Part shown: piece by piece, positions 48,432 through 54,216 of the stretch | How the letters are laid out: each line of letters opens with the position of its first letter | Numbering within the stretch: the first letter of the stretch is position 1 | Origin: an uncultured Ruminococcus sp. | GTDB taxonomy: Bacteria; Bacillota; Clostridia; Oscillospirales; Ruminococcaceae | Direction: 5' to 3' | Assembly (NCBI GenBank): GCA_946530355.1 | Contig: CAMNAB010000001.1 | Location: 1-63,974 of the forward strand | DNA: 63,974 nt | Notes under the pieces: generated by a model | Database searches by the model: none | What the model was told of the DNA's origin: nothing | Seen by the model: the letters and a program-made list of their open reading frames with translations, nothing else | Position numbers and translations under genes: made by a program

Positions 48432-48474
48432 ATGCCATAGCATTCCTGACAGAACATCAGAAATACTATGGCAT
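48432..48474 (-). terminator. Terminator hairpin closing the kinase/vWA/PP2C operon
   Basis: ATGCCATAG-25 nt loop-CTATGGCAT, followed on the minus strand by TTCTATTG. Lies 25 nt after the stop at 48499. Confidence 0.5.
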
Positions 48475-48498
48475 ACCGTTTTTCAGCAAAGAGCTGAA

Positions 48499-49704
48499 TT
48501 ATAAACCATTCTTTTTGAATCCGAAGTTATTCTTCGCAACTTTTTTCCGTTCTTTCGCTTTTTTCAGCATCTCGTCTTTGCTCAGACCGGTCTCAGCTTC
48601 TTCCGCCTCATCAGCGGCTGCGGCAGCTTCATCATCCATGAAGCTCGCAAGACGGTTCTTATATGTACCGCCGTTTGATGCAAGATTCTGAGAGACCATA
48701 ACGCTCTGTCCGCCCTGCGGCTGCTGATAGATGCTTCTCTGCTGCATCATGCCGGAATGCAGCGGCTGTGAAACAATACCGCCGTTCTGCTGATACGGCG
48801 CTGCCTGCTGCGGATTGAGATATGCAGATTGCTGAACGCCCTGCTGGGGATAGCCCTGCTGCGGGTAACCCTGCTGGGGATAGCCTTGCTGCGGGTAACC
48901 CTGCTGGGGATAGCCGCCCTGCTGCGGGTAACCCTGCTGGGGATAGCCCTGCTGCGGATAACCCTGCTGAGGATAACCGCCCTGCTGCGGGTAACCCTGC
49001 TGGGGATAACCGCCCTGCTGCGGATAACCCTGCTGGGGATAACCACCCTGCTGCGGGTAACCCTGCTGGGGATAACCGCCCTGCTGCGGATAACCCTGCT
49101 GCGGATAGCCGCCCTGCTGCGGATAACCCTGCTGCGGGAAAACCGGCGCTGCTTCCGGTTCAATTGTTTTGACTTCTGCTGTCGGTCCATTCGAAGCATC
49201 GAAGAACGGATTATTTTCATCGACCTCAAAACCGGCGGAGAAATCGCCTGCTGCTGCCGATGCAGTACCTGCGGGTGCGGAGACGGCATCATCAAATCCG
49301 GAGAGGAAATCAGATGCAGGTGTATCGCCGCGGAGGGAGGATGCTGCGACAGATTCCGTCTGCGAAATAATGACTTCGCATGCGCCGTTGGAAGGACGCT
49401 CTGCAAGCAGAACGGCAATCTCCTCTTCTGTGGGCTGAACGACTGAATCATCAATGCACTGGATCTTAACCATTTGCTTTGCGATTGCACGCGGCGGCAG
49501 AGATTTCACAGCGATCCAGACAGGAGAAATGGTATCAATCTTGTCATCCTTTACGGTCAGGCAGGTCAGACCTGTAATGATCTCATCATCGGATGTGACA
49601 ATCAGACAAAGCTGAATATCGGAGACTGCGGATAGCTGGGGACGCGCATCCTGGATCACCAATTCGTATTCGATTGCCTTGCTGATAAGCGCTTCAAGTT
49701 CCAT
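48499..49704 (-). CDS. Protein with unknown ~130-aa N-domain, ~100-aa ([11 protein letters not shown])n low-complexity repeat and basic C-terminal tail
   Basis: ATG after AAAGGAAGGAA RBS. Last gene of the operon, 37 bp after the PP2C gene. Tail sequence: ...[37 protein letters not shown]. Confidence 0.72.
48838..49137 (-). repeat. Tandem 15/18-bp (33-bp compound) in-frame repeat encoding ([11 protein letters not shown]) x ~19
   Basis: ccctgctggggatagcc / ccctgctgcgggtaacc units repeated across about 300 bp. They create spurious long ORFs in several other frames on both strands. Confidence 0.9.
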
Positions 49705-49741
49705 ATGCTATTCCTTCCTTTCACTGTCGGTGTTTACCCGA

Positions 49742-50653
49742 TCAGATATTTTTCAGTTTTTCCAATCGCTTTTTCTTGCGTTCAGCGGCTGTGTCTTTAT
49801 ATTCCTGCACCTTATTTTTCAGCATTTCCACATTTTCAGCAAGGCAATCCATATCACAGACGCAGGCAAGAGAAATGTCATCCTCTGTACCGTAATGTGA
49901 ACGCTTGGTCATATTCTTTTTCACAGAGGTTTCAAATGACTCAAGATTTTCAAGCTGACTTGAAATAATCAGGTGATAGTCAAGGAAATCATCTTCATTG
50001 CTGAAAGATGTATACAGTCCGTCTGAGGATGCAAACACTGCGATCAGTTTTTTATCCGTCACAACAAAGCTGTTAAACATAGATGCGGCATTGCTGTTGC
50101 ACATAGATGCGGTCATATTAGCCGGAGCCGATTCGTCATAATTCATCGGCATGACCGGTTCGCCGTCATCAAACAGTGCGACAAGGCTGCCGTCACCGAT
50201 CTGAACACCGAACGTAAATCCTTTGCCGGCGATTGCGGCGACGAGTGTTGTGCCGTAATAAGATTCAGGCGGGATTGCTTTGAACTCTTCGGTTGTGAAT
50301 TTTTTCATTTCCTCTCGTGTGACCGGATGATCCGCCAGATGCTGCTGCACGCGGGCATTCCAGTTCACGATGATTTGTTTCTCAATGTTTTTCAGGATGA
50401 GCTTTGCATGATTCGGGAAATTGCTTTCGAATTTTTCCGGATCCATATAAAACCGCTTTACAGTTTCCAGCGCCGCTTTTACGGCAAATTCCGAGCCAAG
50501 GTGGCTTCTGAAATATTTTTTGCTGCCATGCCCGTCAGCAATGACTGCGATTGCGTAGCGCTCATGCACCTCAAATGCAGAATGATCCTGACAGACAAGC
50601 CCGCTTGCCACATGACTTGCGCCGATAACTGAATGGCTGAACCCGCCGAACAT
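49742..50653 (-). CDS. PP2C-family Ser/Thr protein phosphatase
   Basis: AAGGAGG RBS. Metal-binding motifs CQDH..., AVIADGHGS, SSDGLY and EDDISLACV. Confidence 0.85.
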   Translation of the reverse strand: MFGGFSHSVIGASHVASGLVCQDHSAFEVHERYAIAVIADGHGSKKYFRSHLGSEFAVKAALETVKRFYMDPEKFESNFPNHAKLILKNIEKQIIVNWNARVQQHLADHPVTREEMKKFTTEEFKAIPPESYYGTTLVAAIAGKGFTFGVQIGDGSLVALFDDGEPVMPMNYDESAPANMTASMCNSNAASMFNSFVVTDKKLIAVFASSDGLYTSFSNEDDFLDYHLIISSQLENLESFETSVKKNMTKRSHYGTEDDISLACVCDMDCLAENVEMLKNKVQEYKDTAAERKKKRLEKLKNI

Positions 50654-50709
50654 CGCAATTTTCCTCCTTATAAAATATCATAATGCAGTGAGAGTCCGTT
50701 GTTCGGCAA

Positions 50710-52931: not shown

Positions 52932-53020
52932 CTGTTTTTATCCTCCCCTGTCAAAAATCAGAATATTAGGGTGTAAATGTATACTGCATCCGATCTCCGA
53001 ACGGGATGCGGAGCCGGTTG

Positions 53021-54079
53021 TTACTGTACTTTGCCGGGGTGATAAGTTTCCCACGGGATTGCATTGCTGAGGCAGTATTTATATACATACGAATTCTCGA
53101 CACACCGGATGGTGAGACGCGGACAGTATGCAAATGCATTTTTATCAATGAACTTGACGCTTTGCGGAAGCGTCAGTTTCCGGAGTTTTTCGCAGCCGGC
53201 AAATGCCTGTTCTCCGATGCTGCTGACGGTATCCGGAATCTCAACGATCTCCAGGCTCTTGCAGTAAAGGAATGTACTGTCGGCAATTTCCATGATGCCG
53301 TGCGGCAGGGTGATGCCTGCGAGCCGTTCGCACTGGATAAACGCAGCTTTTCCGATCAGGCGGAGTGATTCCGGCAGCTCGATCAGGCGCAGATGCTTAC
53401 ATTCCGAGAATGCATATTCACCGATCGCAAGCAAGGAATCCGGCAGTTTGACGGAGCGCAGATTGCCGAATCCGTCGAAGCAGAAATCCTCGATCTTGGT
53501 GCAGCCGTCCGGAATGATGATATTCCGTGCAAGGATCCGGTATCTGGAAGCTGCGGAACGGGTGAATACATCATCGTTTACGCTGACGGTACGCTGTTTT
53601 TCCTGTTTTTCTTCCTTTTCGATCTCCTCGGGCTCTTTCAGCCGCAGGGGGGAATCATAGGGCCAGCCCAGCATAAATGTCAGACACGCAAGCACAAATT
53701 CGGCTGCGTTTTCTGACAGGAATTTCTCGCCGAGCATGATGCTTTTGGCTTTTGTCGCTGCCATTTCATGGTTCTGCTGTTCAGAGAGCAGAACGCCCAG
53801 AATATTATCTTTGACCATTGTACGAAGCAGTTTGCACTCTTTATCGTATTCCGATATATAATCGTTCAACAGCGCGGTGAAGCGCATTTCGTCAAACATC
53901 AGGCTGTTCCCATATTTAATGAACAAAGAGTCCTTGTGCTCCTTGATCAGTGCTTTTAGCTGCTGCTGAATATATTTTGTATTTTCAAAGCCCACAATAT
54001 TCTGGAGAACAGGGGCTCCGCATGCCGGACAGGATATGCTGCTCGGCGGAAGCTCTGCATGACATTTCTCACACTGCAT
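53021..54079 (-). CDS. Cytoplasmic zinc-ribbon protein with helical middle domain and six BspA-type leucine-rich repeats
   Basis: Start at ATG 54079 (MQCEKCHAELPPSSISCPACG), with AGGAGA RBS. About 23-aa repeats of the form LxxIxLPxSLxxIGxxAFxxCxxL, six copies. No signal peptide. The 80-codon upstream extension in the track has no support. Confidence 0.75.
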   Translation of the reverse strand: MQCEKCHAELPPSSISCPACGAPVLQNIVGFENTKYIQQQLKALIKEHKDSLFIKYGNSLMFDEMRFTALLNDYISEYDKECKLLRTMVKDNILGVLLSEQQNHEMAATKAKSIMLGEKFLSENAAEFVLACLTFMLGWPYDSPLRLKEPEEIEKEEKQEKQRTVSVNDDVFTRSAASRYRILARNIIIPDGCTKIEDFCFDGFGNLRSVKLPDSLLAIGEYAFSECKHLRLIELPESLRLIGKAAFIQCERLAGITLPHGIMEIADSTFLYCKSLEIVEIPDTVSSIGEQAFAGCEKLRKLTLPQSVKFIDKNAFAYCPRLTIRCVENSYVYKYCLSNAIPWETYHPGKVQ

Positions 54080-54097
54080 GGTTTTATCTCCTGACTT

Positions 54098-54143
54098 CAA
54101 TTTGAATGCCGATCCGGTTGCAATTTGAATGCCGTTCCGGTTG
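54098..54143 (-). repeat. Exact tandem 23-bp direct repeat (22/23 identical) in the operon leader, abutting the RBS
   Basis: Plus strand: caatttgaatgccgAtccggttg (54098-54120) followed directly by caatttgaatgccgTtccggttg (54121-54143). The RBS (ctcct) is at about 54089-54093. Confidence 0.85.
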
Positions 54144-54187
54144 CGCCGAACGCTTGCGGAAGAACCGTTTTGCAGGGCGCAGATATA

Positions 54188-54216
54188 CCTGTTTTGTATT
54201 ATAGCACGTTTTTTTT
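54188..54216 (-). promoter_or_regulatory. Consensus promoter TTGACA-17-TATAAT for the ZnR-LRR/kinase/vWA/PP2C operon
   Basis: Minus strand reads TTGACAatccaaaaaaaacgtgcTATAAT (54216-54188), giving a predicted leader of about 100 nt. Confidence 0.65.

Follow-up and report, generated by a model that had tools for sequence, protein, structure and literature searches.

A conserved five-gene Ruminococcus operon combining a TerY-P-type kinase-vWA-PP2C triad with a candidate repeat-protein adaptor and a putative pseudo-deaminase

Introduction

TerY-P/YegI-type triads, in which a Ser/Thr kinase is linked to a vWA protein and a PP2C phosphatase, are widespread, and their cellular role is still unexplained even in Escherichia coli. 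The window analysed here is a stretch of 63,974 nucleotides from an uncultured Ruminococcus sp. (GenBank assembly GCA_946530355.1, contig CAMNAB010000001.1). It carries such a triad on the minus strand as the middle part of a five-gene operon, g1 to g5, whose first gene encodes a leucine-rich repeat (LRR) protein and whose last gene encodes a protein with Q/G/Y/P repeats. What does this switch serve in Ruminococcus, and are the two additional proteins its partners or only its neighbours? The first-pass annotation of the window had favoured an accessory stress or conflict module, possibly directed against phages. We found that the five genes are co-inherited under purifying selection, and we give about an even chance to the reading that the operon is a chromosomally fixed, vertically inherited and domesticated phospho-switch of TerY-P/YegI type with a resident signalling role. 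The triad itself is already known; the new parts are the g1 adaptor module, the putative g5 pseudo-deaminase with a prion-like tail, and a predicted forkhead-associated (FHA)-like reader.

Organisation of the operon

The operon and its predicted signals are arranged as follows.
54198-54226, minus strand: sigma-70-type promoter TTGACA-17-TATAAT with TG extension, 12/12 matches, 119 nt 5' of the g1 start
53021-54079, minus strand: g1, 352 aa from the ATG chosen in the first-pass annotation
51588-52931, minus strand: g2, 447 aa
50710-51534, minus strand: g3, 274 aa
49742-50653, minus strand: g4, 303 aa
48499-49704, minus strand: g5, 401 aa
48432-48474, minus strand: terminator-like hairpin with a 19-20 bp stem, 25 nt past the g5 stop

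The five minus-strand open reading frames (ORFs) were borne out from 54079 down to 48499, with short gaps of 89, 53, 56 and 37 bp between g1-g2, g2-g3, g3-g4 and g4-g5. The strong ribosome-binding site described for each gene was found for g1 to g4 (AGGAG, GGAGG, AGGAG and AGGAGG, in turn), while g5 has a weaker one, AAGGAAGGA. The perfect TTGACA-17-TATAAT promoter exists, and its position is 54226-54198 instead of 54216-54188, a shift of 10 bp. The hairpin reported downstream of g5 is also real, with a strong fold (-36.3 kcal/mol, z = -7.9 against shuffled sequences) and a weak T tract. A hydropathy scan revealed no membrane- or signal-like hydrophobic segment in any of the five proteins. The five genes form a real operon with cytoplasmic products, bracketed by a single promoter and a single terminator. 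Pfam searches agreed with the folds that had been read by eye, namely a Zn ribbon with LRRs in g1, a kinase in g2, a vWA domain with a metal ion-dependent adhesion site (MIDAS) in g3 and a PP2C in g4.

Distribution and conservation

With one genome per GTDB species, 321 relatives of the g2 kinase were found, and counts per 80 loci refer to the best 80 of these 321. All 80 belong to Ruminococcus/Oscillospiraceae, including isolates of R. flavefaciens and R. albus. The presence of each gene was determined by tblastn with the window proteins, taking as denominator the loci with enough contig to hold it (with room).
g1: present in 77/77 loci with room, median identity 55%
g2: the query, 80 loci, median identity 82%
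g3: present in 76/76 loci with room, median identity 83%
g4: present in 75/75 loci with room, median identity 64%
g5: present in 64/64 loci with room, median identity 39%

The five genes were found in identical order in every related locus with sufficient contig, so that the LRR and repeat genes, which the first-pass annotation had taken as partners of the triad, are indeed co-conserved with it. Forty-five further metagenome loci possess a Ruminococcus-type kinase; g1 and g5 were both detected at 1e-10 in 39 of them, and the other six lie on short contigs. A different arrangement is present in a sister clade from human-gut metagenome contigs (L108-L133, L137, L154, L158-L164), which encodes a vWA protein, the kinase, a second divergent kinase-like protein of 397 aa, another vWA protein and a PP2C. 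No g1- or g5-like genes were detected near these duplicated-kinase loci.

Compared with R. albus 8, the kinase and the vWA protein are 81% identical, versus 64% for the syntenic Fe-hydrogenase-like protein and 43% for the DivIVA-like protein. Both neighbours are encoded in 58060-60930 on the plus strand; the DivIVA-like one is a coiled-coil protein of 347 aa, and the Fe-hydrogenase-like one has 571 aa and ends in a long helical extension at its C-terminus. Their synteny with the operon holds for R. albus 8 (L078, 5440-8411) as well as for the window. Pairwise comparison with the 15 closest loci gave dN/dS (the ratio of nonsynonymous to synonymous substitution rates) of 0.06-0.22 for all five genes, values that are rough because dS is saturated.

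The first-pass annotation had described the block as more AT-rich than its flanks and as placed among small orphan genes, which was taken to fit an accessory origin. The GC content of the operon is 49.8%, versus 50.7% for the window, which corresponds to the 29th percentile among equal-sized windows. Its neighbours include IspD, malic enzyme, an M20 peptidase and the Fe-hydrogenase-like gene, and no integrase or defence genes were present among its neighbours in the window. The upstream flank is mostly conserved across the related loci, and the downstream flank (DUF7660, LPG_synthase_C, M20 peptidase) is not. An AT-rich accessory island was rejected on GC composition and conserved synteny. A phage origin was also rejected, with one weak kinase match among 50,697 phage records. 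The universal gene order, the constraint and the housekeeping neighbours point to a vertically inherited, constrained operon and not to a mobile accessory island. The suggested accessory or defence-island origin is thus not supported, in view of presence in all 80 best loci, upstream synteny, ordinary GC, purifying selection and the absence of a PADLOC TerY match.

The triad and its nearest known systems

The kinase family to which g2 belongs, with a kinase domain, a Zn ribbon and a beta-rich tail in about 430-450 aa, comprises 691 clusters at 50% identity (E<=1e-30), with members in Acetobacterium, Agathobaculum, Treponema, a cyanobacterium and archaeal metagenome-assembled genomes (MAGs). 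The order kinase-vWA-PP2C was present in every distant-taxon context examined. A tblastn search of plasmids with the kinase matched 1607 records, of which most are enterobacterial. One ter-type plasmid was inspected; its match is a kinase adjoining a PP2C, and the locus also encodes TerW, a VWA protein and a TerD-family protein, which corresponds to the setting first associated with TerY-P. In E. coli, YegI, PphC/YegK and YegL align with g2, g4 and g3 at 24-31% identity (single-pair E of 4e-9, 7e-8 and 4e-10, in this order). These ter-plasmid matches and E. coli alignments place g2-g3-g4 truly, though distantly, among the TerY-P triads, as the first-pass annotation had recognised.

With the described TerY-P triad the operon shares a vWA protein with MIDAS, a PP2C and a kinase with a C-terminal Zn ribbon, encoded by adjacent, co-directional genes. 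It differs by the addition of the g1 adaptor and g5, by its vertically inherited chromosomal setting, and by the lack of linked TerB/C/D/Z, DNA-processing or type VII secretion-like genes. Ter genes (TerB, TerC, TerD and others) were not found in the flanks of the window operon or in the R. albus locus, and they are present in the relatives L082/L083 and L171; linkage to Ter or DNA-processing genes is common among TerY-P triads but does not strictly define them. A literature search found no description of the five-gene architecture; Anantharaman, Iyer & Aravind 2012 may already mention repeat-protein partners. The same work predicted a metal-sensing phospho-switch, according to the summary given in PMC10542128.

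The E. coli YegI-PphC-YegL system also has non-canonical catalytic and DFG motifs in its kinase, as in g2. YegI is an active kinase despite its VGD and DSD motifs (bioRxiv 10.1101/819920), so the odd motifs of g2 are no argument for a dead kinase, and PphC is an active phosphatase (bioRxiv 10.1101/303594). However, gene order and orientation differ in E. coli (yegL-pphC, then yegJ, then yegI), YegI has 648 aa with a C-terminal half unlike that of g2, and the E. coli system lacks an LRR adaptor and a deaminase-fold partner. In E. coli K-12 (L166, 2146000-2158000), yegI-yegJ-pphC-yegL lies two genes from the dgcE diguanylate cyclase gene and beside the HSP70-like yegD, a proximity that echoes the diguanylate cyclase linkage in Ruminococcus (see below) and may be coincidence.

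TerY-P-like modules have been reported as anti-phage systems (Gao et al. 2020, as cited in PMC10542128), and in the tested stand-alone systems, as summarised in the same source, the kinase is fused to an OB fold. The three domain classes clustered there are the same as in the window operon; g2, however, is fused to a Zn ribbon and a predicted FHA-like domain, not to an OB fold, and the patchy, mobile or defence-island setting of such systems was not found for the window operon. PADLOC models gave no match to g3 or g4 even at E<=10, and g2 matched only the mad6 and PD-T4-6 kinase models. Only far sub-threshold matches were obtained for the operon proteins with NCBIfam.

A kinase with a zinc ribbon plus a domain rich in beta-strands, an adjacent PP2C and a stand-alone vWA protein have been described in GAP1-N2 GTPase conflict systems (Kaur, Burroughs, Iyer & Aravind 2020, PMC7159879). 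The beta-rich domain was left unassigned in that description, and its counterpart in g2 is predicted to be FHA-like. These GAP1-N2-linked modules have the same kinase architecture as g2 but are actinobacterial and GTPase-centred, whereas the window operon encodes no GTPase.

A similar toolkit is used by the H1 type VI secretion system of Pseudomonas, in which PpkA, PppA and Fha1 provide a Hanks kinase, vWA, PP2C and FHA that act as a reversible assembly switch. In that pathway the vWA domain is periplasmic and fused to the kinase, the FHA domain is a separate protein and the output is a secretion machine. The window operon has no secretion genes, and all five of its proteins are cytoplasmic.

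The kinase g2 and its C-terminal tail

The C-terminal region of g2 is located as follows.
51591-52031, minus strand: aa 301-447 of g2, with a helix, a CxC...CxxC Zn ribbon and a beta-sandwich

Pfam assigned the C-lobe of g2 to Pkinase (6.4e-11). The protein has a G-loop GSGGQG, Lys44, a catalytic loop YQDLNDGG, DCD in the place of DFG, and the APE motif, and all five are invariant among 75-81 orthologues. The YQD motif aligns with the HRD of solved kinases, and the catalytic-loop Asn is replaced by Gly in the window clade. Most of the wider kinase family has YQDLNDGN with CDNDN, versus YQDLNDGG with CDCDN in the window clade and its nearest relatives; across the family, the catalytic-loop and CDxDN positions (region 52400-52470, minus strand, in g2) covary.

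Three of the four ribbon cysteines of the tail (C25, C27 and C49) are invariant in a 28-sequence alignment, and C46 is conserved in at least 90%. An AlphaFold2 model of aa 301-447 built with this alignment reached a predicted local distance difference test (pLDDT) score of 90.4. The Foldseek search against PDB returned FHA domains as the top 40+ matches (probability ~1, TM(target) ~0.6, E ~1e-2), including those of APLF, TIFA, PNKP, MDC1, Rv0020c and the Bdellovibrio diguanylate cyclase DgcB. The Pfam FHA model did not match the g2 tail. In the sandwich N106 is invariant and G103 near-invariant, no Arg is invariant, and the window clade has Glu where most relatives have His. The first-pass description of g2 as a Hanks-fold kinase with non-canonical motifs, a Zn ribbon and a beta-rich tail is retained in all its parts, with the tail now predicted to adopt an FHA-like fold.

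The vWA protein g3 and the phosphatase g4

The g3 product is a TerY/YegL-like vWA protein (VWA PF00092, 7.7e-10) with a complete MIDAS, D47-x-S49-x-S51, T116 and D151, whose residues are invariant in 77 sequences. Also invariant is an N-terminal acidic motif, DFDDDDPLS (~51440-51475, minus strand). It resembles the conserved DFLSGFDD motif of g5, and the two may compete as ligands for one site. The g4 product is a PP2C_2 phosphatase (PF13672, 1.8e-34) with its DGHG, GDG, SDG and DD motifs conserved in 75-81 orthologues. The complete MIDAS and the metal-binding Asp motifs noted by eye for these two proteins were therefore both recovered.

The g1 protein and a recurrent helical adaptor

The g1 protein consists of a Zn ribbon (aa 3-24), a helical adaptor module (~aa 28-150), a charged linker and BspA-type LRR_5 repeats (aa 185-345), of which two regions are located as follows.
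53630-53998, minus strand: helical adaptor module, aa 28-150
53045-53527, minus strand: LRR_5 region, PF13306, 1.2e-37

Pfam recognised the Zn_ribbon and LRR_5 (1.2e-37), and no Pfam family covers the helical module. The g1 protein shares LRR_5 repeats with the BspA-type LRR surface proteins, but it lacks a secretion signal and surface anchoring: no secretion signal or transmembrane segment was detected, the N-terminus is the Zn ribbon and the peak 19-aa hydropathy is 1.33.

A profile of the Ruminococcus helical module, compared by hhalign with the triad-linked N-termini of other taxa after removal of the Zn ribbon, gave a probability of 99.1% and an E of 1.7e-18, and the homology was also supported by hidden Markov model (HMM) and BLAST matches. 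Beside triads, g1-type adaptors are fused to RCC1 in Acetobacterium (L081), to LRR_5 in Agathobaculum (L082/83) and in a Bathyarchaeota MAG (L168), to Sel1/TPR in L169 and to WG repeats in L170. In a Ruminococcus conjugative element (L084), Sel1, LRR and RCC1 proteins all possess the adaptor. Some upstream proteins of L128-type loci (TcaA-like) that match the g1 N-terminal HMM were not counted as adaptors, as this match is probably mostly via the Zn ribbon.

The recurrence of the g1 N-terminus beside triads elsewhere indicates that a repeat-protein partner is widespread in the kinase family and not a local oddity. From these comparisons, the kinase family seems to be generally accompanied by a repeat-domain partner joined via the helical module, and we found no prior description of such a partner. 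The proposal that the LRR partner falls outside the described triad thus stands as far as the literature goes, and needs amendment insofar as repeat-protein partners recur beside related triads in other taxa. On a Treponema contig (L167, 6579-6998) and a Prevotella plasmid (L172, 6624-6989), the gene directly upstream of the kinase encodes a small metal-binding TerY_C protein (PF15616), a fourth component distinct from the g1-type adaptor.

The g5 protein, a putative pseudo-deaminase with Q/G/Y/P repeats

The regions of g5 are listed below.
49330-49704, minus strand: putative pseudo-deaminase domain, aa 1-125
49135-49329, minus strand: acidic linker with the motifs DFLSGFDD and (V/I)DE(S/N)NPF, in 72 and 81 of 104 orthologues
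48847-49134, minus strand: low-complexity region, aa 191-286, 12 QQGYP and 6 QQGGYP units
48502-48687, minus strand: C-terminal region with Y/F-K-x-R-L-x-x-F-x-DD, an acidic stretch and a basic tail; basic-tail pattern in 80/104 orthologues

The g5 protein of the window had no Pfam match, also when its N-domain was searched alone. Its orthologues share this N-domain of ~125 aa, and a minority of them carry H(A/S)E ... PCxxC motifs. PF00383 was matched by five of 17 representative N-domains, and three of these matches exceeded the gathering score. The window protein and one orthologue that has the deaminase motifs (L070) align over their whole lengths (E 1e-41), and in this alignment HSE of the orthologue corresponds to SPV and PCDEC to PTEEE. 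In an HMM-guided census, intact [HC]xE and PCxxC motifs were present in 11/107 g5 orthologues and lost in 96/107. The motif-keeping orthologues belong to several separate, mostly early-branching lineages in a rough kinase tree, and this scatter suggests repeated loss of the deaminase residues.

Judged by its orthologues, the N-domain of g5, which the first-pass annotation had left as unknown, is a degenerate cytidine-deaminase fold that has lost its zinc ligands and catalytic Glu; the repeat and the basic tail described with it are confirmed. Relative to the cytidine/deoxycytidylate deaminase superfamily (PF00383), the N-domain is orthologous to members with H(A/S)E and PCxxC but has SPV and PTEEE in the window protein, and it is followed by an acidic, low-complexity and basic tail, a fusion seen in no named family. 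A stand-alone paralogue of the deaminase domain with intact motifs (212 aa, PF00383, 26 bits) is encoded at 14046-14684 in L095, a close relative, 1.5 kb downstream of g5.

The g5 gene was found only in the Ruminococcus group. A search of the N-domain against a collection of 5.8 billion proteins returned only the window's own protein, among 16 word-prefilter candidates, and its profile gave only noise against PDB sequences (best E 0.13). A single-sequence AlphaFold2 model of g5 was uninformative (pLDDT 40).

The repeat region comprises 18 units in 96 aa and contains only Q (36), G (24), Y (18) and P (18), which fits the prion-like pattern of Q/N/G/Y richness with few charged or hydrophobic residues. 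Its length varies, and the region is missing from four orthologues (L016, L018, L030 and L139). In a divergent clade (L134/L153), a 502-aa g5-like gene (8459-9967, minus strand) is convergent to g1-kinase-vWA-PP2C; its location on the opposite strand means that co-transcription is not universal.

Proposed role of the operon

For a resident, domesticated phospho-switch, the following mechanism can be proposed. The g2 kinase would be active despite its YQD...GG and DCD motifs, by analogy with YegI, and would phosphorylate itself and a partner, most likely the N-terminal acidic segment of the vWA protein, the Ser-containing acidic motifs of g5, or both. The FHA-like domain would recognise this phospho-mark, the MIDAS of the vWA protein could clamp an acidic motif of its partner in a metal-dependent manner, and the PP2C would reset the switch. 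Through the helical module of g1 the LRR would be docked to this core, and binding of a ligand to the LRR would bias the switch. As its output, g5 would change its binding or assembly state; the deaminase fold of g5 may be retained as a binding scaffold, not as an enzyme, and its repeat region and basic tail would promote multivalent assembly on a membrane or a polyanion. A conflict-type module whose deaminase effector was active is the probable ancestor of the operon. The present role of the operon in Ruminococcus would be a resident stress or regulatory one, possibly with cross-talk to cyclic di-GMP (c-di-GMP) synthesis.

Several points weigh against this reading. We infer the substrate of the switch, the ligand of the LRR and the output alike. 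Kinase activity is not certain, given the Asn to Gly replacement in the catalytic loop of the window clade, and confidence in the FHA assignment is modest, as it comes from a predicted structure with Foldseek E of ~1e-2 in which the canonical phosphothreonine-binding residues were not identified. The Q/G/Y/P repeats, without Ser or Thr, cannot be a Ser/Thr phospho-acceptor, and their loss from four orthologues means that they cannot be essential. The dN/dS values are affected by the saturation mentioned above. Finally, the relatives of the triad in mobile or conflict contexts, together with the ~10% of orthologues with an apparently active deaminase, would fit a defence role, at least ancestrally.

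Such a role is the content of the first alternative, an anti-phage or abortive-infection system of TerY-P class, which we regard as unlikely though it is the best placed of the alternatives. The LRR would here sense a phage component, kinase, PP2C and vWA would set a threshold, and g5 would be the effector, whose active versions deaminate nucleotides or nucleic acids and whose inactive versions work through toxic aggregation or sequestration. The reported protection against phages by TerY-P-like modules (Gao et al. 2020, to the extent that PMC10542128 cites it) agrees with this, as do homologous triads located beside an integrase, TerD genes and an FtsK-like gene, among conjugative-element genes and on plasmids, the adaptor with swappable repeat 'sensor' domains across taxa, and the 11/107 orthologues of g5 that retain [HC]xE and PCxxC. 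However, the operon is not patchy but universal in the genus, with conserved synteny, it has housekeeping neighbours, and its kinase and vWA protein are more conserved than the neighbouring housekeeping genes. The LRR protein has a dN/dS of ~0.09 and no sign of diversifying selection, the PADLOC TerY and other defence models miss g3 and g4 and match g2 only through generic kinase models, and ~90% of lineages keep the operon intact although their presumed effector is catalytically dead. The anti-phage or conflict framing of the first-pass annotation is consequently not supported by distribution, context or selection.

Clearly less probable is a sensor of metal or oxidative stress, in which the MIDAS and the Zn ribbons sense a divalent metal, kinase and phosphatase relay the signal, and g1 and g5 are lineage-specific accessory partners. 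The MIDAS is invariant, as are the three Cys-based Zn-ribbon motifs, a PP2C/kinase pair on a tellurite-resistance plasmid, near TerW, VWA and TerD-family proteins, falls within the kinase family, and the metal-sensing prediction of Anantharaman et al. 2012, in the form relayed by PMC10542128, points the same way. Against it, neither the window nor the R. albus locus has TerB, TerC, TerD or any other Ter gene close to the operon, and no data link g1 or g5 to metals. Metal sensing is moreover compatible with the resident phospho-switch and not exclusive of it.

Diguanylate cyclase neighbours

The region upstream of the operon contains the following pair, divergent from the operon.
54605-57098, plus strand: sugar-binding lipoprotein (Peripla_BP_4) and membrane diguanylate cyclase (GGDEF), assigned by Pfam

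This divergent pair of a lipoprotein and a transmembrane GGDEF protein is conserved upstream in ~62-67 of the 80 loci, and it is possibly linked functionally to the operon. A different GGDEF gene, encoding four transmembrane segments, is located between the PP2C gene and g5 in R. albus-type and several other lineages (for example L078 13188-14144, L071 13370-14353 and L093 11236-12261); R. albus-type loci have it in place of the upstream pair or besides it. An FHA-type N-terminus for the protein encoded within the operon was ruled out, as the region is a membrane domain with four transmembrane segments. The two independent GGDEF arrangements hint at c-di-GMP cross-talk, and synteny alone may explain them.

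In the corresponding third alternative, which we consider a little less probable still than metal sensing, one of the two, the phospho-switch or the adjacent membrane diguanylate cyclase, controls the other, and the switch thereby governs adhesion or biofilm behaviour of fibre degraders. Both GGDEF arrangements speak for it, and an FHA-regulated diguanylate cyclase, DgcB of Bdellovibrio, is among the structural neighbours of the predicted FHA-like domain of g2. However, the linkage may be mere inherited synteny, the window operon itself is without a GGDEF gene, some loci have no GGDEF neighbour (e.g. L016, L018, L022, L030, L070 and L073), and the Pfam search revealed no c-di-GMP-binding domain in the five proteins.

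That the LRR and repeat genes are functionally separate from the triad and adjacent to it by chance is most improbable: the opposite strand of the g5-like gene in L134/L153 would agree with it, but 100% co-occurrence in fixed order over dozens of species while the downstream flanks change effectively refutes it, and short intergenic gaps and the recurrence of g1-type adaptors beside triads in unrelated taxa also stand against it.

Significance of the operon

R. albus and R. flavefaciens, rumen bacteria that can be cultivated, have in this operon a clean, single-copy and strongly conserved version of the triad. As two candidate partners are encoded beside the switch, its input (the LRR adaptor) and its output (g5) can be tested directly, and the recurrent helical adaptor can help to locate the sensors that belong to related triads in other phyla. 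If the catalytic residues of the deaminase were lost several times independently with the operon intact, this would be a case of an enzyme becoming a scaffold.

A broader pair of linked proposals is speculative, and it is doubtful that both parts hold together. In the first part, TerY-P/YegI-type triads in bacteria and archaea would have an unrecognised fourth component, a helical docking module, often preceded by a Zn ribbon, that plugs in interchangeable LRR, RCC1, Sel1 or WG sensors. In the second, a Ruminococcus conflict system would have been domesticated to a core operon, in which the former effector deaminase became a pseudo-enzyme fused to a Sup35-like Q/G/Y/P domain whose assembly (condensate or prion-like) is set by the Ser/Thr switch. 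If true, this second part would provide a bacterial example of phospho-regulated assembly of a low-complexity domain.

Other features downstream of the operon

Directly after the operon hairpin lies a DUF7660 ORF (48149-48385, minus strand, 78 aa), which is followed by its own GC-rich hairpin. As this ORF is missing from all 80 related genome loci, it represents a local insertion unrelated to the operon. The next ORF (47095-48102, minus strand, 335 aa) encodes an LPG_synthase_C domain. A second perfect promoter, TTGACA-18-TATAAT at 48043-48072 on the minus strand, is located within its first codons, so the true start of the LPG_synthase_C gene is probably an internal Met ~30 codons downstream.

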